This document shows positions 17,381-30,513 of a DNA stretch of 45,345 nucleotides, in pieces. Under the pieces are notes generated by a model. It worked only from the letters and a program-made list of their open reading frames with translations. It searched no databases and was not told where the DNA came from. Both the position numbers and the translations under genes were made by a program. Numbering within the stretch: position 1 is the first letter of the stretch; every line of letters starts with the position of its first letter. This DNA comes from Rhodospirillales bacterium (GTDB lineage Bacteria; Pseudomonadota; Alphaproteobacteria; Acetobacterales; Acetobacteraceae), in the NCBI GenBank assembly GCA_043746535.1, contig JAYTQW010000345.1, forward strand, positions 1-45,345. Direction: 5' to 3'.

Positions 17381-18256
17381 TCAAGTCGGTGACGCCAGCG
17401 ACAGGGCAACACCGGGCCGGGCCGGCATGGCCGCGAGCAGCCCGCCGCCGGCGACCAGGGCCGCCGCCGCCAGCAGCGTGGCCGTGAACGGCGCGTAGCC
17501 GGCGGCGCACAGCAGCAAGGTGGAGGCGACCGGCGCCGCGTAGGCGAGGGTGCCGAGCAGGCGTGGGTCGCCGCGCTTCATGCCGATGTCCCAAAGGAAG
17601 AACGCGCCGCCGACCGGACCCAGGCCGAGGGCCACCGCCGCCATCCAGGCATGGATGCTCGGCATCATGCGCGGCTCGAATGCGGCATGGCACAAGGCCG
17701 CCAACACGGCGGTCGCGGCGCAGAATCCGGCCACTGCCCCCGTCGGCACGTCGCGGAACCGTCGTGCCAGCACCGAGTAGAACGCCCAGATGACGGCACT
17801 CGCCGCCGCCGCGACATAGCCCGGCAGCGCCGCGACGCTGAAATGCGCGCCGCCGCCCAGCAGCAGCGCGCAACCGGCCGCGCCGAGCGCCACGCCGAGC
17901 AGTTGCCGTGGCAGCAGGCGCTGGCCCAGCGTCCAGGCGGACAGCAGCACCACCAGCAGCGGCCAGGAGTAGTTCAGCAGGTTCGCCTCCGCAGCCGGCG
18001 CCCAGGCGAGGGCGGCGAAGAACAGCGCGTGGAAGCCGAACAGCCCGCCGACGCCATGCGCCCACGCCCACGGCGGCTGCCGCAGGTCGCACAGCCGTCC
18101 GAATGCCGCCAGCAGCAGCAGGCCCGATCCGCCGGACACGGCGAAGCAGATTGCCACCAGCTCGAACGGCGGCACGGCGGCGGCGGCGCGCGACAGCAGG
18201 GCGAGGAATGCCCAACTGGCGATGGCACCGACGCCGAGGAGGTTGGCCCGCCTCAA
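17381..18256 (-). CDS. EamA/DMT-superfamily transporter
   Basis: 291 aa with about 10 hydrophobic helices and a duplicated EamA-like architecture. The TTG start overlaps the phaB stop region. Confidence 0.75.
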   Translation of the reverse strand: MRRANLLGVGAIASWAFLALLSRAAAAVPPFELVAICFAVSGGSGLLLLAAFGRLCDLRQPPWAWAHGVGGLFGFHALFFAALAWAPAAEANLLNYSWPLLVVLLSAWTLGQRLLPRQLLGVALGAAGCALLLGGGAHFSVAALPGYVAAAASAVIWAFYSVLARRFRDVPTGAVAGFCAATAVLAALCHAAFEPRMMPSIHAWMAAVALGLGPVGGAFFLWDIGMKRGDPRLLGTLAYAAPVASTLLLCAAGYAPFTATLLAAAALVAGGGLLAAMPARPGVALSLASPT

Positions 18257-18975
18257 TACATGTGCTGCCCGCCATTGATCGACAGCGTCGATCCGGTGAT
18301 GAAGTCGGCATCGTCGGAGGTGAGGAACAACACCCCGCGCGCGATGTCCTCGGCATGACCCAGCCGCCCTACCGGGATGCGGGCGACGATCTTCTGCAGC
18401 ACCTCGGGCGGCACCGCGCGCACCATTTCAGTGTCGACATAGCCGGGTGCGATGGCATTGCAGGTGATGTTGAAGCGGGCGCCCTCCTGCGCCAACGCCT
18501 TGGTGAAGCCGTGGATGCCCGACTTGGCGGCGGCGTAGTTGACCTGGCCATATTGCCCGGCCTGGCCGTTGATGCTGCCGATGTTGACGATGCGGCCGAA
18601 CCTGGCCGCGCGCATGGCGTCGAAGGTCAGCTTGCATAGGTTGAAGCAACTGCCCAGGTTGGTGTCCAGCACCGCGTCCCACATGTCGCGCGACAGCTTG
18701 GCGATGGTGGCGTCGCGGGTGATGCCTGCGTTGTTGACCAGGATCTCGATCGGCCCGGTCTCGGCGGTGATCGCCGCCACCGCCTCCGCGCACGCCTCGA
18801 AGCTGCCGGCGTCGAACTTGCGCACCATGATGCCGGTAGCGGCCTTGAAGGCCTCGGCGGCGGCGTCGTTGCCGGCGTAGCTGGCGACCACCGTGCGGCC
18901 GGCGGCCTGCAACTGCCGGCTGATCTCGGCGCCGATGCCGCGCGTGCCGCCGGTGACCAATGCGACCTTGCTCAT
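18253..18975 (-). CDS. phaB: Acetoacetyl-CoA reductase (SDR)
   Basis: MSKVALVTGGTRGIG, NNAGITRD, and the YAAAK catalytic motif in the context GQVNYAAAKSG, ending GSTLSINGGQHMY. This is the classic PhaB/PhbB pattern. Thiolase lies upstream in the same orientation. Confidence 0.9.
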   Translation of the reverse strand: MSKVALVTGGTRGIGAEISRQLQAAGRTVVASYAGNDAAAEAFKAATGIMVRKFDAGSFEACAEAVAAITAETGPIEILVNNAGITRDATIAKLSRDMWDAVLDTNLGSCFNLCKLTFDAMRAARFGRIVNIGSINGQAGQYGQVNYAAAKSGIHGFTKALAQEGARFNITCNAIAPGYVDTEMVRAVPPEVLQKIVARIPVGRLGHAEDIARGVLFLTSDDADFITGSTLSINGGQHMY

Positions 18976-19071
18976 GGGTTCCCTCCCGTTGCCCCGTTTC
19001 CGGCAGCGTAGCACCGGATCGCCTCTGCGCTACACTGGCAGGGGCGGCAGGGAGCGTGGGCCTATGCACAT

Positions 19072-19806
19072 CTATTTTCTAGCAAATGACTCAATAAGTC
19101 CGGATAGCTTTTGATTTATGTCTGCCCAATGGGGCAGGAGAGATGCGTTAAATTGGAATGCGAGGTGTATGTCGCCAATTATGTATTTTTGAGCGTTGCA
19201 TTGCTCTGTCTGAACAAGTTGACCGGAAACTGGGGTATCTACTCTGACCGCATCTATAGTTCCTGGAAAAGCGACTAGAATGCCAGAGACAGTACGCATT
19301 CGATAGAGATCATATGGTCCAGGCTCAAGTTCATCATCTTTCCACGGCCCAACGAATGCGGCGACCCGCTCTGGCTCGTCGTGCCCGACGAGCACCGCAT
19401 AGATCAGGTCAGGGTGTCTTGCGGCGGACAAGACCCGAAACTCGGCAATCCGGTTCGGTGGGATCGGCGTCATGCCGGGATAAAGAAACGCTAACTGCGG
19501 CGCATAAACCTTGCCGCATACGCCATGCCCAGATAAGCAGTAGAGTGGGTTGACGAACATCCCCACTACCATGCTGCGCGGGATGTCGAGCGTGACGTGC
19601 CCAATCGTGACCGCAACCGTAGCGTGCGACTCGGCATCGAACCCTGCGACTGAACTAGCCGGCAGCGAGTTGGCTGGCGCTACGCTCATGCCAGGATCGG
19701 ACGCCATTGAGTCAGGCGCGGCAGACCAGGCGTGACGCGGCGGCAGGCCAAATAAAAGTGCCGCCAACACCAGCGGTATGCGAAACGCTAGAACCGCCTG
19801 GAGCAT
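19072..19806 (-). CDS. Hypothetical secreted protein (ORFan, atypically low GC)
   Basis: 244 aa with a signal peptide (MLQAVLAFRIPLVLAALLFGLPPRHAWSA). I recognise no family motif. By hand count, 107 G+C in 240 nt at 19081..19320 (about 45%) versus about 75% in the phaB flank. Confidence 0.6.
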   Translation of the reverse strand: MLQAVLAFRIPLVLAALLFGLPPRHAWSAAPDSMASDPGMSVAPANSLPASSVAGFDAESHATVAVTIGHVTLDIPRSMVVGMFVNPLYCLSGHGVCGKVYAPQLAFLYPGMTPIPPNRIAEFRVLSAARHPDLIYAVLVGHDEPERVAAFVGPWKDDELEPGPYDLYRMRTVSGILVAFPGTIDAVRVDTPVSGQLVQTEQCNAQKYIIGDIHLAFQFNASLLPHWADINQKLSGLIESFARK

Positions 19807-19818
19807 AAAGAAAGGCCG

Positions 19819-20991
<1,173 letters not shown>

Positions 20992-22373: not shown

Positions 22374-25208
22374 ATGGGCGACGACGACGCCGCTGATCTG
22401 GCACTCGATGCGGCGGTCGAGGCCATGGAGGCGGGGCCGCCCGCGCCGAATGCGTCCGCACTGCATCTCATCCTGATCGACGGATCGGGCTTCATCTTCC
22501 GCGCCTTCCATGCTCTGCCGCCGATGAACCGCGCCGATGGCACGCCCGTCAACGCCGTGTTCGGCTTCACCAACATGCTGACGCGGCTGCTGCGCGACCA
22601 TGTCGGCACCCATATCGCCGTGATCTTCGATGCCGGGCGCACAACCTTCCGCAACCGGTTGTACGACCAGTATAAGGCGCACCGACCGGAGCCGCCGCCC
22701 GAGCTGGTGCCGCAATTCGCACTGGTGCGCGAGGCCACGCGCGCGTTCGGCGTCGCCGCCATCGAGCTGCCGGACTGGGAGGCCGACGACCTCATCGCCG
22801 CCTATGCGCGCGCCTGTGGCGAGATGGGCGGGCGCACCACCATCGTCTCGTCCGACAAGGACCTGATGCAGTTGGTGCGCGAAGGCGTCGACATGCTCGA
22901 CCCCATCAAGCAGAAGCCGATTGGCGCGGCCGACGTGATCGAGAAGTTCGGGGTGCCGCCGCACAAGCTGATCGACGTGCAGGCGCTGATGGGCGACAGC
23001 GTCGACAATGTGCCCGGCGTGCCCGGCATCGGCCCAAAAGGTGCGGCACAGCTCATCGTCGAATACGGCGACCTCGAAGGCGCGCTCGCCGCAGCCCCCG
23101 CCATGAAGCCGTCGAAGCGCCGTGACCTGCTCATTGCCTACGCCGAGCAGGCACGCCTGTCGCGCGTGCTGGTGACGCTGGACGACCGCGCGCCGCTGCC
23201 GGAGACGATCGAGAGCCTGGTGGTGCGGGAGCCGCAGCGCGGCGTGCTGCGCGCATGGCTGCACGAGCAGGGGTTCCGCAGCACCGCCACCCGCCTCGGC
23301 CTGGACGGCGGCGAGGTGATGCCAAGGGGTGCGCCGCAAGGCCAACTGGCGTTCACCGGGCAGCCCGCCGCCGAGCCGGCTGGACCGGGAGCGCCTGGGG
23401 AGAGCTTCGGCCCGTATGCCTGTGTCACCAAACTGGACGACCTGCAAAGCTGGGTGGCGGAGGGCGTGGCCGCCGGCGTCATCGCCATCGACACCGAGAC
23501 GGACGGCCTGGACGCCCTGCGTGCCAGCCTGATCGGCTTTTCGCTCGCGACCGCGCCCGGCCGTGCCTGCTATGTGCCATTGCGCCACACGGCGGAAGGG
23601 CCACAGATCGCTGTTGCGGACGCGCTCGCCGCACTCGCGCCGATGCTGGTCGATCCGGCGGTGCTGAAGGTGTTCCAGAACGAAAAATTCGATCAACTGA
23701 TCCTGACCGGCGCGGGCGCTCCACATGCCACGCCCACCGACGACGTGATGCTGATAAGCTGCGCGCTCGACGCCGGACGCCATGGCCACGGGCTCGACGA
23801 ACTATGCGCACTCCATCTCGGCCACACGCCGATCTCCTACAACCAGGTCACCGGAACCGGGCGCGCACGGCTGCCGTTCGCACAGGTGCCACTCGACCGC
23901 GCCACCGCCTATGCCGCCGAGGACGCCGACATGGCATGGCGGTTGTGGCAGGTGCTGCGGCCCCGGCTGCGCGAGGCGAAGGCGTTGTCCATCTATGAGC
24001 AGATGGAGCGCCGGCTGACCCCGGTGCTGATGGACATGGAGCGCGCCGGGGTAAAGGTGGATGCCGACGATCTGCGCGCCATGAGCCTGGATTTCGCCGC
24101 GCGCATGGCGGTGATCGAGGCGGAGGCGCACCGGCTGGCCGGCGACAGCTTCAACATCGGCAGCGCCAAGCAACTCGGCGAGGTGCTGTTCGACCGCATG
24201 AAGTTGCCGGGAGGCAAGCGCATGAAGACCGGCGCCTGGGGTACCGACGCCGCGGTGTTGCAGGCGCTGGCGGACCAGGGCGAGGCGTTGCCGGCGCGGG
24301 TGCTGGAGTGGCGGCAACTGGCCAAGCTGAAATCGACCTACGCCGACGCGCTGGTCGAGCAGATCAACCCCGCCACCGGGCGCGTCCACACCAGCTTCGC
24401 GATGGCCCTCACCAGCACCGGGCGGCTGTCCTCGACCGATCCCAATTTGCAGAATATCCCGATCCGCACCCAGGAAGGGGCGCGCATCCGCCGCGCCTTC
24501 GTGGCCGAGCCGGGGCATGTGCTGATCAGCGCCGACTACTCGCAGATCGAGTTGCGGCTGTTGGCCCATGTCGCCGACATCCCGGCCCTGCGCGACAGCT
24601 TCCGCGCCGGTGAGGACATCCACGCCCGCACCGCCAGCGAGGTGTTCGGCGTGCCGATGGCGCGGATGGACAGCGCCACCCGCCGCCGCGCCAAGGCGAT
24701 CAACTTCGGCATCATCTACGGCATCAGCGCATTCGGCCTCGGCCGGCAGCTCGGCATCGAGCCGGGCGAGGCGCGCGGCTATATCGAGGCCTATTTCGCC
24801 CGCTATCCCACCATTCGCGACTACATCCGACGCACCCGCGAGGAGGCGCGCAGCTATGGCTTCGTGCTGACCCCGTTCGGGCGGCGCTGCTGGGTGCCCG
24901 GCATCGCCGAAAAGAACGCGGCCATGCGCAGCTACGCCGAACGCCAGGCGAGCAACGCGCCGTTGCAGGGCGGAGCCGCCGACATCATCAAACGGGCCAT
25001 GGTGCGCCTGCCACAGGCACTGCGCGACGCCGGGCTGTCGGCACGGCTGCTGTTGCAGGTGCATGACGAACTGCTGTTCGAGGCGAGCGAGGCGGAGGCC
25101 TCCGCCACCGCCGCCCTGGCACAGTCGGTGATGCAGGCGGCGGCAACATTGTCGGTGCCGCTGGTGGTGGAGACCGGGACCGGGCGGACCTGGGCGGAGG
25201 CGCACTGA
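22374..25208 (+). CDS. polA: DNA polymerase I
   Basis: 944 aa from MGDDDAAD. 5' nuclease (LILIDGSGFIFRAFHAL), 3'-5' exonuclease (IAIDTETDGLD), and polymerase motifs (DYSQIELRLLAH, RRRAKAINFGIIYG, QVHDELLFE). Confidence 0.95.
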   Translation: MGDDDAADLALDAAVEAMEAGPPAPNASALHLILIDGSGFIFRAFHALPPMNRADGTPVNAVFGFTNMLTRLLRDHVGTHIAVIFDAGRTTFRNRLYDQYKAHRPEPPPELVPQFALVREATRAFGVAAIELPDWEADDLIAAYARACGEMGGRTTIVSSDKDLMQLVREGVDMLDPIKQKPIGAADVIEKFGVPPHKLIDVQALMGDSVDNVPGVPGIGPKGAAQLIVEYGDLEGALAAAPAMKPSKRRDLLIAYAEQARLSRVLVTLDDRAPLPETIESLVVREPQRGVLRAWLHEQGFRSTATRLGLDGGEVMPRGAPQGQLAFTGQPAAEPAGPGAPGESFGPYACVTKLDDLQSWVAEGVAAGVIAIDTETDGLDALRASLIGFSLATAPGRACYVPLRHTAEGPQIAVADALAALAPMLVDPAVLKVFQNEKFDQLILTGAGAPHATPTDDVMLISCALDAGRHGHGLDELCALHLGHTPISYNQVTGTGRARLPFAQVPLDRATAYAAEDADMAWRLWQVLRPRLREAKALSIYEQMERRLTPVLMDMERAGVKVDADDLRAMSLDFAARMAVIEAEAHRLAGDSFNIGSAKQLGEVLFDRMKLPGGKRMKTGAWGTDAAVLQALADQGEALPARVLEWRQLAKLKSTYADALVEQINPATGRVHTSFAMALTSTGRLSSTDPNLQNIPIRTQEGARIRRAFVAEPGHVLISADYSQIELRLLAHVADIPALRDSFRAGEDIHARTASEVFGVPMARMDSATRRRAKAINFGIIYGISAFGLGRQLGIEPGEARGYIEAYFARYPTIRDYIRRTREEARSYGFVLTPFGRRCWVPGIAEKNAAMRSYAERQASNAPLQGGAADIIKRAMVRLPQALRDAGLSARLLLQVHDELLFEASEAEASATAALAQSVMQAAATLSVPLVVETGTGRTWAEAH

Positions 25209-25236
25209 TAATGCCTCTCCAAAAAGCCAGGCAAGC

Positions 25237-25258
25237 AGTGCTTTTTTGCAAAAAAGCA
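25237..25258. repeat. Perfect 22-bp palindrome GTGCTTTTTTGCAAAAAAGCAC (possible polA terminator or binding site)
   Basis: Self-complementary on direct reading. Lies 29 nt after the polA stop in an AT-rich spacer. Confidence 0.6.
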
Positions 25259-25325
25259 CCAAAAAACTTTGACTGATTAAGCGTGCGTTTGCTCTACCTC
25301 GCGCATCGGCGGAGAAAAGGTTTTT

Positions 25326-25347
25326 GCTTCTTTTTACAAAAAGAAGC
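25326..25347. repeat. Palindrome GCTTCTTTTT-AC-AAAAAGAAGC (possible modC terminator or binding site)
   Basis: 10-bp arms with a 2-nt centre, same architecture as 25237..25258. Lies about 40 nt downstream of the modC stop on the minus strand. Confidence 0.6.
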
Positions 25348-25386
25348 GCTTCCTCACTGTGTGCAATCGTCATGGCGTGATCGGCA

Positions 25387-26466
25387 TCAAGCCGCGACGA
25401 TCAGCTCCACCGAGACCGACTTGATCAACGCCAGCACCGGCGCTCCCGGCGCCAGTTGCAGGCGGACCAGCGCGTCCGGCGTCACCCGGGCCAGCAGCAC
25501 GCAACCGCCCGCCGCAATCTCGACCATGGCGGTATGGCGGCGCTGGTCGATGCTGGCCGCCCGGACGTGGCCGGGGATGATGTTGTGCAGGCTGATTTCC
25601 CGGGGCGCCGCCGTCGCCAGGATGATCTCCCGCGCCAGCACGCGGATACGGCACCGGGCGCTCACCGATAGCGGCAGCAGCGGCGCCCACAGTTCCAGCG
25701 CATGGGCGCGCAGCAGGGTCAGGCGGCGCGCTGTGTCATGGGCGAGCACGGTTGCCACGAGCACGCTGCCGGCATCGTCGCGGGCTGCCAGGGCCACACC
25801 GCTCTGGGCTGAGAGATGCTCCAGCGTCCCCTGAGCCATCAGGCGGCCGGCGTCCAGCATGACGACGTGATCGGCCAGTGCCACCAGTTCGTCCATCGCA
25901 TGCGTGACATAAACAATCGGGATGCCGAGCGTGTCGCGCAACTGTGCCAGGAACGGCAGGATTTCCGCCTTGCGGGCGGCATCGAGGCTGGCGAGCGGCT
26001 CGTCCATCAGCAGCAGGCGCGGTTGCGACAACACCGCCCGGCCAATCGCCACGCGCTGGCGTTCGCCCCCCGACAGCGTGTGCGGCTGCCGCCGCAGCAA
26101 GGGACGCAAGGCAAGGAGCTCGACCACCCGCTTAGTACCGATCGGCCCCGGCGGGGCACGGCGTTGGCCATAGGCCAGGTTGGCGGCGACGCTCATATGC
26201 GGGAACAGGCGCGGCTCCTGGAACACCATGCCGATCCGCCGCGCCTCCGGGCGCAGCCAGATCCCGGCCTCGCTGTCGGACAGGATGGCGCCGCCCAGGG
26301 CCACGCGACTGGATTGTGGCCGCAACAGGCCGGCCACGGCGGCGACGATGGTGGATTTGCCAGCGCCGGATGGCCCGAACAGGACGGTCGCCTGGGGCGA
26401 GGGCGCGCTGAACGCGACATCCAGGGTAAAACCACCCTGGCGATGCCGGAGCGCCACCTCGATCAT
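25387..26466 (-). CDS. modC: Molybdate ABC transporter ATP-binding protein
   Basis: 359 aa from MIEVALRH. Walker A (GPSGAGKST), LSGGERQRVAIGRA, LLLMDEPLASLD, and a C-terminal Mop/TOBE-like domain. Confidence 0.92.
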   Translation of the reverse strand: MIEVALRHRQGGFTLDVAFSAPSPQATVLFGPSGAGKSTIVAAVAGLLRPQSSRVALGGAILSDSEAGIWLRPEARRIGMVFQEPRLFPHMSVAANLAYGQRRAPPGPIGTKRVVELLALRPLLRRQPHTLSGGERQRVAIGRAVLSQPRLLLMDEPLASLDAARKAEILPFLAQLRDTLGIPIVYVTHAMDELVALADHVVMLDAGRLMAQGTLEHLSAQSGVALAARDDAGSVLVATVLAHDTARRLTLLRAHALELWAPLLPLSVSARCRIRVLAREIILATAAPREISLHNIIPGHVRAASIDQRRHTAMVEIAAGGCVLLARVTPDALVRLQLAPGAPVLALIKSVSVELIVAA

Positions 26467-27995: not shown

Positions 27996-28967
27996 TTATG
28001 GCACCAGGATGGTGCTGCCGGTGGTCTGCCTCGCCTCCAAGGCCGCATGGGCGGCAGCGGCTTCGCGCAGCGGGAAGCTCTGGTTCACCGCCACACTGAT
28101 GGCGCCGCTACGGACCGCCTCGAACAGCGTCGCGGCGGCGCTGCGCAATTCGCTGGTCTTGGCCATATAGGTGGCAAGGCTGGGCCTGGTCAGGAACAGG
28201 CTGCCCTTGGCGGCGAGTTGGCTGATATCGACCGGGGGCACCGGGCCGGATGCATTGCCGAAGCTGACCATCAGCCCCAACGGCGCCAGGCAGTCCAGGC
28301 TGGCCTCGAAGGTGTCGCGCCCGATGCTGTCATAGACGACCGGCACCATCGCGCCATGGGTCAGCCGCTTCACCGTCGCGGGCAGGTCGTCATAGCCGAC
28401 GATCACCTCCGCCGCGCCATACGCCCGGGCAATGTCCGCCTTGGCGGCCGAGGACACCACGCCAATGACATGCGCGCCCAGATGCCGCGCCCATTGGCAC
28501 AGGAACAGCCCCACCCCGCCGGCGGCGGCATGCACCAGTATGGTGACACCTGGACGGACCACGAAGGTCCGATGCAGCAGGTAATGCGCGGTGATGCCTT
28601 GCAGCATAACCGCAGCCGCAGTGGCGGCCGGCATCCAATCCGGCAAGGGCACCGCTCGGTCCGCCGGCAGCACCCGTTCGGTGGCATAGCCCCCGGGCGG
28701 CCCACCGCAATAAGCCACCCGGTCCCCAGGTCTGATATCGGTCACGGCAGCTCCGGCCTTCAGGACGACGCCGGCGCCTTCAAGGCCGATGATCGCGGGC
28801 AACTGCGTCTTGTAGACGCCGGTGCGAAAGTAGACGTCGATATAGTTCAGCCCGATCGCCTCATGTCGCAGCAGTATTTCATTGGCCGCGGGTTCTGGCG
28901 TAGGCACATGCTCCCATTGTAGGACCGAAGGCCCTCCAGTGGCGTGCATACGAATCGCTTCGGTCAT
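27996..28967 (-). CDS. qor: NADPH:quinone oxidoreductase (zeta-crystallin/MDR family)
   Basis: 323 aa from MTEAIRMHA. GLNYIDVYFRTGVY, GLEGAGVV and the nucleotide motif HAAAGGVGL. Confidence 0.88.
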   Translation of the reverse strand: MTEAIRMHATGGPSVLQWEHVPTPEPAANEILLRHEAIGLNYIDVYFRTGVYKTQLPAIIGLEGAGVVLKAGAAVTDIRPGDRVAYCGGPPGGYATERVLPADRAVPLPDWMPAATAAAVMLQGITAHYLLHRTFVVRPGVTILVHAAAGGVGLFLCQWARHLGAHVIGVVSSAAKADIARAYGAAEVIVGYDDLPATVKRLTHGAMVPVVYDSIGRDTFEASLDCLAPLGLMVSFGNASGPVPPVDISQLAAKGSLFLTRPSLATYMAKTSELRSAAATLFEAVRSGAISVAVNQSFPLREAAAAHAALEARQTTGSTILVP

Positions 28968-29087
28968 GAACTCAGCCTCTTCAGGATTCGATGCGTGTGG
29001 GACGTGTGCGTGGCGCGAAATCGATTGGTCGAACGGGCTGATCCCTGTCGGACCTTCGTGCATGTGGAAAGGACGGGGACGATCACT

Positions 29088-29687
29088 ATGAGCGCTGCAC
29101 AAGAGTTGTTGGACAGTGTTCCACGTGAAACAATGGTGCGCCTCGAGCGATATGTCGCATTGCTGGAGCGATGGGCGGCGCGCGTCAACCTTGTCGGACG
29201 TTCCACAATCCCCGATCTTTGGACTCGCCATGTCGCCGATTGCCTACAGTTGCAGGCTTCGATGTCGCAGGACGTTACCCATGCGGTCGATGTCGGCAGC
29301 GGCGCCGGCTTCCCCGGCCTCGTACTCGCCATTGCGACCGGCACATATTTCACCCTGGTGGAGTCCGACAGCCGCAAAGCCGCCTTTTTGAACGAGGCCA
29401 TTCGTGTGACCAGCGCCCCGGCCGAAGTGTTCAACGGACGCTTCGAGCTTAAGCGTTCGCTGGCGCCACTGATCACCGCGCGCGCGTTCGCCCCGCTCCG
29501 GCACATCTTGACGGCCACTCCCGCAGCCCAGCGCGACATCGCGACATACCTGTTGTTGAAAGGTGGGTCAGCACGTGCGGAGATAGACGAAGCACGGCAG
29601 GATTTTGCGTTTGACCTCGACTTGATCCCTAGCTTGACCGATACCCGAGGGAGTATTTTGAAGTTGCGCAATGTCCGTCCGATCTGA
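29088..29687 (+). CDS. rsmG: 16S rRNA (guanine527-N7)-methyltransferase RsmG (GidB)
   Basis: 199 aa. NLVGRSTIPDLWTRHVADCLQL and the SAM motif VDVGSGAGFPGLVLA. Lies directly upstream of parAB. Confidence 0.9.
   Translation: MSAAQELLDSVPRETMVRLERYVALLERWAARVNLVGRSTIPDLWTRHVADCLQLQASMSQDVTHAVDVGSGAGFPGLVLAIATGTYFTLVESDSRKAAFLNEAIRVTSAPAEVFNGRFELKRSLAPLITARAFAPLRHILTATPAAQRDIATYLLLKGGSARAEIDEARQDFAFDLDLIPSLTDTRGSILKLRNVRPI
29117..29132. promoter_or_regulatory. parS centromere-like site
   Basis: TGTTCCACGTGAAACA matches the widely conserved parS consensus TGTTNCACGTGAAACA. It lies within the 5' part of rsmG, about 0.55 kb upstream of parA. Confidence 0.8.
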
Positions 29688-30513
29688 GCCGAAGCTACCG
29701 AAATTCGTCGCCCCCCGTTGCATCGCCGTGGCCAACCAAAAGGGGGGCGTCGGCAAAACCACCACCGCCGTCAACCTGGCCGCCGCAATGGCGGCTCGTG
29801 GCGACCGTATCCTGCTCATCGACCTCGATCCACAGGGCAACGCCTCCACCAACCTTGGCAGCGGTCGCGGCTCCACCGAGAATGACAGCTACCGATTGCT
29901 GACCGACGCTGACGCGGCCAACTTGCTGCCACAGGCAACCGGGGTCGCCCGGCTGTCGCTTATCCCAGCCAACATGGACTTGGTGGGCGCCGAAATCGAG
30001 CTGGTCGGCATCGCCCAGCGGGAGCATCAGCTACAGGCCGCCCTGAACCGTCTCGGAGTATTGACCGAGTACCACGCCGTCGTCATCGATTGCCCGCCAT
30101 CGCTTGGCCTGCTCACCATCAATGCCCTGGTGGCGGCGGACGCCGTGCTGATCCCGCTGCAATGCGAGTTCTTTGCCCTGGAGGGCCTGGCGCACCTGAT
30201 GCGGACCATCGCCACGGTCCGTCAAAAACTCAATCCCGGCTTGCAGATCGAAGGCATCCTGCTGACCATGTTCGATCGCCGCAACAACCTGTCCGAACTG
30301 GTCGCCGCCGATGCACGCAGCTTCTTTGGCGACAAGATCCTGGAGACGGTCATCCCCCGCAACGTCCGCATCTCCGAAGCACCCAGTCACGGTCAGCCGG
30401 TTTCCACCTACGACCCACGCTCGCCCGGCGCGTTGTCCTATGCGCGCCTGGCTGAAGAGCTGAGCCAACGCCAGACGCGACATGTGCCCGCAGCACTGCG
30501 GCGGCCAGCATGA
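29671..30513 (+). CDS. parA: Chromosome partitioning ATPase ParA
   Basis: The deviant Walker A motif KGGVGKTT in the context [18 protein letters not shown], followed by [12 protein letters not shown]. Confidence 0.95.

Follow-up and report, generated by a model that had tools for sequence, protein, structure and literature searches.

A horizontally acquired gene between phaA and phaB for a predicted exported protein, a probable divergent relative of the Smlt3025/FrpD fold

Smlt3025 is a periplasmic immunity protein of the bacteria-killing type IV secretion system (T4SS) of Stenotrophomonas maltophilia and neutralises Smlt3024, a toxin delivered by that system (PMC6759196). [quoted passage not shown] Here we compare with these systems a 244-amino-acid (aa) open reading frame (ORF) with an ATG start (19072..19806, minus strand), which lies between the polyhydroxybutyrate (PHB) synthesis genes phaA and phaB on contig JAYTQW010000345.1 of a Rhodospirillales bacterium. 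The window, by which we mean the whole stretch of DNA analysed, comprises 45,345 nucleotides (nt) of this contig. The original prediction, made from the letters of the window, had taken the ORF for a secreted ORFan. We conclude that the 244-aa protein is probably a divergent lone member of the Smlt3025/FrpD-like fold, horizontally acquired and apparently exported, and by analogy with the described pairs we propose that its most likely role is that of an orphan immunity protein or decoy which counters a toxin domain of a competitor, a role to which we assign a probability of about 0.55.

A gene of foreign composition between phaA and phaB

The ORF is a real gene. The identical 244-aa protein is encoded on four contigs (from an ENA assembly and a Logan run), and a relative with 54% identity, P0002, is full-length and intact in another metagenome-assembled genome (MAG). 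A contig of the same sequencing run carries a second copy, L002, with 77% DNA identity to window positions 19776-19417 (blastn), and the first 129 codons of this copy encode a protein 69% identical to that of the window. The ratio of nonsynonymous to synonymous substitution rates (dN/dS) between the two copies is 0.34 over these 129 codons and 0.22 over codons 55-129. Homologues elsewhere and this purifying selection together exclude a spurious ORF, and they equally rule out that the gene arose de novo from the spacer. The DNA similarity ends abruptly at codon 130 (position 19417, minus strand), past which L002 continues as an in-frame fusion to unrelated sequence of 27-40% GC (L002:983-1983) with a weak match to the immunity domain PoNi_N (PF08928, E 1.4e-3). 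The L002 locus further contains a 96-aa low-GC ORF after the copy and an HNH-endonuclease gene upstream.

The ORF is also an insertion. We fetched 80 loci coding for phaA relatives, and in 61 of them, all alphaproteobacterial, phaB follows phaA. The gap between the two genes has a median of 129 nt (interquartile range 105-257), which bears out the expectation that they are normally adjacent, and it reaches at least 846 nt, its size at this locus, in 5 of the 61. The 244-aa gene is present in none of the 61 loci, and its homologues lie elsewhere; the gene is thus not a conserved resident of this gap with matching composition. The edges of the insert could not be mapped by alignment, because the spacers between phaA and phaB in relatives (phaA about 80% identical in protein) are too divergent to align.

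The composition of the ORF is foreign. It has a GC content of 0.55 and a GC content at third codon positions (GC3) of 0.57, against a GC3 of 0.88-0.94 in the four neighbouring genes (0.94 in phaA and 0.92 in phaB). The very low-GC 3' third of the ORF (19081..19320, minus strand; GC3 0.29-0.43) contains 107 G+C in 240 nt (44.6%), exactly as originally counted, and deviates from all 240-nt windows of the 45 kb by z = -5.5 (mean 0.695, standard deviation 0.045), so that it falls in the lowest-GC segment of the whole window. The 5' half of the ORF has a GC content of 0.58-0.64, close to the 60% first reported, while the figure of about 75% given at the same time for phaB was overstated (0.67 overall, 0.64-0.72 locally). 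Along the gene GC3 falls from 0.66-0.74 in codons 1-140 to 0.49 in codons 141-175 and 0.29-0.43 in codons 176-244, and the same 5'-to-3' fall is found in P0002. Such a gradient could have arisen in two ways: the ancestral gene was low in GC and its 5' part has been exposed to high-GC hosts for longer, or recombination has replaced the 3' part. Two milder dips in GC occur elsewhere in the window, one over gidB (rsmG; 28781-29780, GC about 0.59, GC3 0.68) and one in an AT-richer intergenic stretch after polA (25101-25500, minimum 0.50); both are shallower than that over the ORF.

The GC content of every family member is below that of its neighbours. GC3 is 0.43 in P0005 and 0.67 in P0002, against 0.89 and 0.95 in the respective neighbours, and overall GC is 0.42 in P0004 (flanks 0.625) and 0.43 in P0012 (flanks 0.57-0.60). 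Because the value is lower in every host, even beside a presumed partner (P0012 with 0.43 next to a giant gene with 0.60), low GC seems to be a trait of the family and not only the mark of a recent arrival.

We read the ORF as a horizontally acquired gene, in keeping with its foreign composition. The original prediction had offered a recent foreign acquisition or a chimeric origin. The foreign origin stands, on the composition, the absence from all 61 compared loci and the unrelated loci of the homologues; a chimeric origin gains indirect support from L002 and from the GC3 profile of P0002; recency gained none.

The insertion is clean. No insertion sequence (IS) element, integrase or transposase lies within 8 kb of the ORF, and no direct or inverted repeats beyond chance flank it, in agreement with the original prediction, which had noted the lack of flanking IS elements, integrase and direct repeats. 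By eye, the 96-nt downstream spacer contains no attC-like structure. Neither terminal inverted repeats, a target duplication and an attC site nor a recombinase gene were thus recognised as signs of an IS element, integron cassette or integrase-borne island, and an integron cassette was rejected for want of attC-like or repeat features. Scans with Rfam and for tRNA genes gave only one distant tRNA-Ala, so that the insert is not a tRNA-linked island. The other window genes examined belong to the core chromosome (TamB, Omp85, leuS, kup, gidB, parB, polA, miaB and ybeY), and no genes for toxins, secretion systems, integrases or transposases were seen in the window parts examined.

A rare family with a remote link to Smlt3025 and FrpD

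Relatives of the 244-aa protein are extremely few. Searched with a word index, 5.8 billion protein clusters yielded three matches, and an exhaustive HMMER search of 1.84 billion representatives yielded six, one of them spurious; profile searches brought the family to about a dozen members among roughly 15 billion proteins. The spurious one, P0006, has 1002 aa and FG-GAP-like repeats; its match was spread over nine short stretches and was rejected as a repeat or compositional artefact. A scan of viral contigs found no relatives, one metagenome scan gave none and another a single short locus (L088), and tblastn searches of a plasmid collection with P0001, P0012 and the N-terminal domain of a giant protein described below gave no match. 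The family includes a second subfamily (P0009-P0012), which hhalign aligns with the window subfamily at 98.1% probability (E 7.9e-14, 177 columns).

The homologues occupy loci unrelated to phaA-phaB and to each other. P0002 sits between ispG and hisS, P0004 and P0007 adjoin IS630-type transposase genes, P0008 adjoins what appears by eye to be the start of an IS1380-type transposase, and P0003 adjoins an HNH gene, the last four contexts having been read on short contigs. P0002 is followed by a 94-aa coiled-coil-like ORF (L001:8850-9134) with a GC content of 0.61, compared with 0.70-0.73 in the flanking genes, and without a significant family match; the two may have arrived together.

This distribution bears on the idea that the protein was recruited to the operon as an accessory of PHB metabolism, for example in extracellular polymer handling. 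The only points in its favour are the position between phaA and phaB and the probable co-transcription with them. No other family member lies near pha genes, the compared phaA-phaB loci all lack the gene, and searches of Pfam and NCBIfam with the protein revealed no resemblance to phasins, PhaR or depolymerases (PhaZ). Moreover, PHB synthesis is cytoplasmic, whereas the protein carries an export signal. We consider such a function highly improbable.

The export signal, described as clear in the original prediction, is a predicted Sec signal peptide of 28 residues (19723..19806, minus strand), which ends in an A-W-S cleavage motif and has no lipobox cysteine. It reads MLQAVLAFR, then IPLVLAALLFGL, then PPRHAWS, with predicted cleavage before AAPD, and its 12-residue hydropathy peaks at 2.68 over residues 10-21. 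Most full-length family members have a hydrophobic N-terminal export signal, and those of P0003, P0004, P0005, P0012 and L088 are equivalent to that of the window protein. Export to the periplasm by a type I signal is thus a prediction from sequence that the signals of the family and a conserved cysteine pair support.

Two parts of the protein stand out by their conservation. The most conserved block comprises residues 60-110 (19477..19629, minus strand), predicted to form two beta-hairpins, and contains the motifs D-I-P-R-(N/S), Y-C-x-S-G-x-G-V-C-G with the cysteine pair, and L-Y-P-G-M. P76, R77, Y89, C90, G93, C97, G98, L108 and P110 are invariant, and in the window subfamily the invariant residues are grouped in D-I-P-R-N, Y-C-x-x-G-x-x-x-C-G and L-x-P; the window ORF retains every family-invariant residue. 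The strands modelled here (63-68, 71-76, 80-89 and 96-108) have a predicted local distance difference test (pLDDT) of 80-85. The second part is a C-terminal amphipathic helix (residues 221-244; 19075..19146, minus strand), modelled over residues 221-241 with a pLDDT of 75-85. It carries the family motif L-L-P-H-W-x-x-I-N-x-K-L-x-x-L-I-E-S-F, which is conserved in both subfamilies and over the whole family takes the form L-L-P-H-W-x-E-I-N-x-K-x-x-x-L-I-x-S-F.

Three independent signals, each weak by itself, connect the family with Smlt3025. The first is structural. An AlphaFold model built from a six-sequence alignment, with a mean pLDDT of 60.9 and a predicted template modelling (pTM) score of 0.60, begins with two hairpins, continues with an antiparallel sheet and ends in a long helix. 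Smlt3025 has been described with these elements, its antiparallel sheet being central (PMC6759196), and the modelled protein would thus have the fold of the Smlt3025 family with its elements in matching order. The top PDB match of the model in Foldseek was 6PDK (Smlt3025), with E 4.6e-5, a probability of 1.00, template modelling (TM) scores of 0.46/0.45 and 12% identity over the structural alignment; the next-best match had an E-value of 3e-2, and 5EDF (FrpD) was absent from the top 50 matches.

The second signal comes from family models. The only NCBIfam family matched by any member is NF050129 ('Smlt3025 family type IV secretion system inhibitor'), which 5 of 11 members match, P0011 best (E 1.3e-7) and P0010 and P0012 with E-values of 3.6e-4 and 1.1e-3, all three belonging to the second subfamily. 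A search of PHROGs with the window protein and its subfamily gave only one match, at E 0.2. The third signal is a comparison of the whole-family profile, window ORF included, with 177,635 PDB sequences, in which 6PDK_A alone was matched (E 0.016). The alignment consists of two colinear stretches, FRIPANYL...WPDM against IPRNY...LYPD and FLKDWKRMEEAVRDVI against LLPHWQEINQKVTKLI, and both coincide with the two family motifs, the hairpin block and the C-terminal helix. Because the signals from structure, family models and PDB sequences agree, we think homology at the superfamily level to proteins of the Smlt3025/FrpD type quite likely. What had been labelled an ORFan thus belongs to a tiny family with remote, convergent links to these proteins.

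The likeness to Smlt3025 lies in the order of structural elements, in periplasmic export and in the concentration of conserved residues in the N-terminal hairpins. There are also clear differences. Smlt3025 is a lipoprotein with a lipobox cysteine, whereas the window protein has a type I signal; the 6PDK segment aligned with the Cys-Cys hairpin motif of the window protein is mostly gapped and contains no cysteine; and the window copy stands alone in a metabolic operon, with no adjacent X-Tfe effector bearing a VirD4-binding domain and no T4SS visible. The binding surface of FrpD is made of N-terminal strands and the C-terminal helix, the same two blocks that are most conserved in our family, and frpD is encoded with frpC much as P0012 and P0011 lie upstream of large proteins. 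FrpD, however, is an outer-membrane lipoprotein, while the window protein has a type I signal and no partner, and the large neighbours of its relatives lack strict RTX nonapeptides.

Candidate partners and possible roles

The large proteins beside two distant relatives are candidates for partners. P0012 has a tandem paralogue directly before it and, 3 nt after it, a gene for a 2676-aa protein (L089:9153-18786); P0012 and its paralogue are 38% identical, and the same arrangement is found in L090. The 2676-aa protein is rich in Ser, Thr and Ala, and in it a unit of about 80-83 aa is repeated in tandem at least 14 times. An RTX identity of this protein was given less weight because a count of motifs yielded no strict GGxGxD; it has only the degenerate motifs GGGVDTL, GGGTDTL and GDGGADTYVL. 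The other neighbours of P0012 are of kinds that mobile elements typically carry, namely a phage-type integrase, RES, ArdC, DUF736 and an N6/N4 DNA methyltransferase. P0011 is likewise followed by a large ORF (L092), the first 290 aa of which are 40% identical to the N-terminus of the giant L089 protein (E 3e-52). This layout parallels the frpDC operon (PMC5233953) and the Smlt3025/Smlt3024 pair (PMC6759196), and by this analogy the shared N-terminal domain of about 290 aa is the likely partner of P0012 and P0011.

At the window the arrangement is different. The ORF is flanked by phaA and phaB, and neither an adjacent effector, as expected of the Smlt3025 family, nor a large partner, as expected of an FrpD-like protein and present beside P0012 and P0011, is found there. 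The partner N-terminal domain is encoded neither in the window nor in the 16.7-kb L003 excerpt of a 72-kb scaffold nor at the other lone-copy loci. Because there is no partner in the window, we read the window copy as an orphan.

On this reading the 244-aa protein would be exported by Sec, be cleaved after A-W-S at residue 28 and carry no lipid anchor. The pair Cys90-Cys97 would staple the second beta-hairpin. The conserved hairpins (IPRN, YCxSGxGVCG) and the C-terminal helix (LLPHWxxINxKLxxLIESF), the elements with which FrpD contacts FrpC, would form the surface that binds a partner domain, and the orphan copy would neutralise a toxin domain delivered by competing bacteria. Its expression would come from read-through within phaA-ORF-phaB.

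Several traits of orphan immunity genes are found together here, namely remote homology to an immunity protein, no cognate effector beside the window copy, and signs of horizontal acquisition in the foreign composition and the patchy distribution. Several family copies adjoin transposase genes, and the sister locus L002 combines its weak PoNi_N match with an HNH gene. The window copy differs from orphan immunity genes in being a single gene and not part of an array on a mobile island, and in having been inserted cleanly between two housekeeping genes without a recombinase or repeats.

A number of results weigh against this role or against the homology on which it builds. The window protein has no direct match in Pfam, NCBIfam, PADLOC or the PDB sequences, and against NF050129 it gives no match at E <= 10; the members that do match score 11-31 bits, far from the 500-bit cutoff. 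Its sequence link to Smlt3025 is therefore transitive, passing through the hhalign comparison with the second subfamily. One of five models folded, with moderate confidence, and with P0004 as query the model reached a pLDDT of 41.7 and was unusable, leaving the fold without a structural replicate. Where Smlt3025 and FrpD are lipoproteins, the signal region of the window protein (MLQAVLAFRIPLVLAALLFGLPPRHAWS followed by AAPD) has no cysteine for a lipobox. The window parts examined, within the 45 kb of genome at hand, contain no partner gene and no toxin-secretion genes, and the giant L089 protein, besides lacking strict GGxGxD motifs, returned nothing from searches of PDB, Pfam and NCBIfam. 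We know of no toxin activity of the large neighbouring proteins. Finally, the role described for FrpD is high-affinity binding of the FrpC N-terminus and possibly tethering at the surface, not immunity (PMC5233953).

This last point speaks at the same time for a tether or receptor of the FrpD kind, which would hold at the envelope, for adhesion or retention, the N-terminal domain of a large secreted protein whose gene lies at another locus of the genome. P0012 and P0011 both have large proteins as neighbours, and the repeats of about 80 aa in that of P0012, at least 14 in number, look adhesin-like; the visible 45 kb are also only part of the genome in which such a protein could be encoded. The homologue of the partner domain is nevertheless absent from the window, from the L003 excerpt and from the other lone-copy loci, and the window protein has no lipid anchor of the sort that lets FrpD tether. 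Lone copies beside transposase genes suit stray immunity genes better, and sequence comparison points to a single experimentally characterised relative, which is an immunity protein. A tether therefore seems to us rather unlikely.

The gene might instead be a functionless hitchhiker, a piece left stranded from a toxin-immunity or adhesin module of mobile nature, whose frame happens to stay open while the gene decays or drifts neutrally. The missing partner would agree with this, as would a start codon without a ribosome-binding site, the uneven GC3 along the gene, the extreme rarity of the family and the truncation or chimerism, at codon 130, of the sister copy in this sample. Yet the 244-aa frame is intact with all family-invariant residues kept, the dN/dS values of 0.22-0.34 indicate constraint, P0002 is intact and full-length at another locus, and the identical sequence recurs on several contigs. 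We regard a functionless fragment as unlikely.

More speculatively, the whole family can be seen as an undescribed, extremely rare mobile family of exported FrpD/Smlt3025-like proteins whose partners are the N-terminal domains of giant repetitive proteins, which evolves by swapping of 3' halves and spreads as lone 'vaccination' genes, one of them captured in a PHB operon, where defence against a competitor's toxin would be co-expressed with carbon storage. The swapping is suggested by the shared GC3 step and by the break at codon 130 in the L002 chimera. In this full form the scenario is distinctly doubtful, and we return to the orphan immunity or decoy role as our preferred reading.

Locus layout, expression and significance

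The genes on either side of the ORF are native and share its orientation. Upstream, the coding part of phaA (acetyl-CoA acetyltransferase; 19819..20991, minus strand) matches Thiolase_N (E 1.7e-104), Thiolase_C (E 3e-52) and TIGR01930 (471 bits), with best identities of 82-83% to thiolases of Acetobacteraceae MAGs. Downstream, the coding part of phaB (acetoacetyl-CoA reductase; 18253..18975, minus strand) scores 322 bits against TIGR01829, the acetoacetyl-CoA reductase model with a cutoff of 302 bits. The upstream edge of the insert is a 12-nt spacer between phaA and the ORF (19807..19818, minus strand), CGGCCTTTCTTT, with no Shine-Dalgarno motif before the ORF start. The downstream edge is the 96-nt, high-GC spacer between the ORF and phaB (18976..19071, minus strand), and inside it lies the ribosome-binding site of phaB, GGGAGGGAACCC-ATG.

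A sigma-70 promoter scan of the locus found none, and a terminator scan gave two weak sites where about one was expected by chance. The 96-nt spacer contains neither promoter nor terminator in the scans, and its RNA structure is not significant (z -0.45). Because the ORF begins 12 nt after phaA and lacks a ribosome-binding site, its own promoter and any strong terminator, it is probably transcribed with phaAB by read-through, possibly with translational coupling. A weak terminator-like hairpin with a 5-bp stem (CGTCGAGCGCTGACG then GCCTTTCTTT; 19817-19831, minus strand) overlaps the phaA stop just ahead of the ORF start; about one such site is expected here by chance.

The phaA-phaB gap of two relatives also contains ORFs. 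In a related Acetobacteraceae MAG the spacer is 605 nt long and holds a different ORF of 152 aa (L008:5254-5712, plus strand), which begins with a clear signal peptide (MRMIAVAGLLLALTTAAEAQ...) and gives only a weak Ig-like match in Pfam (E 0.024); toward phaB the GC content drops to 0.52. The 719-nt spacer of another relative (L006:5171-5889) has a possible 143-aa ORF on the minus strand. Small foreign genes may be tolerated in this gap.

The practical significance of these findings is modest, since they concern one stray gene whose function is inferred, and they are of value mainly because they point to a rare family and to the giant proteins that may be its partners. An apparent ORFan becomes a testable case, a distant non-lipoprotein branch of a fold of which two characterised members are cited here, and the N-terminal domain of about 290 aa in L089 and L092 provides candidate partners that could reveal what this fold recognises. 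A single defence-type gene can enter a core metabolic operon cleanly, without the scars of a mobile element, and searches for immunity genes that are based on islands would miss it.

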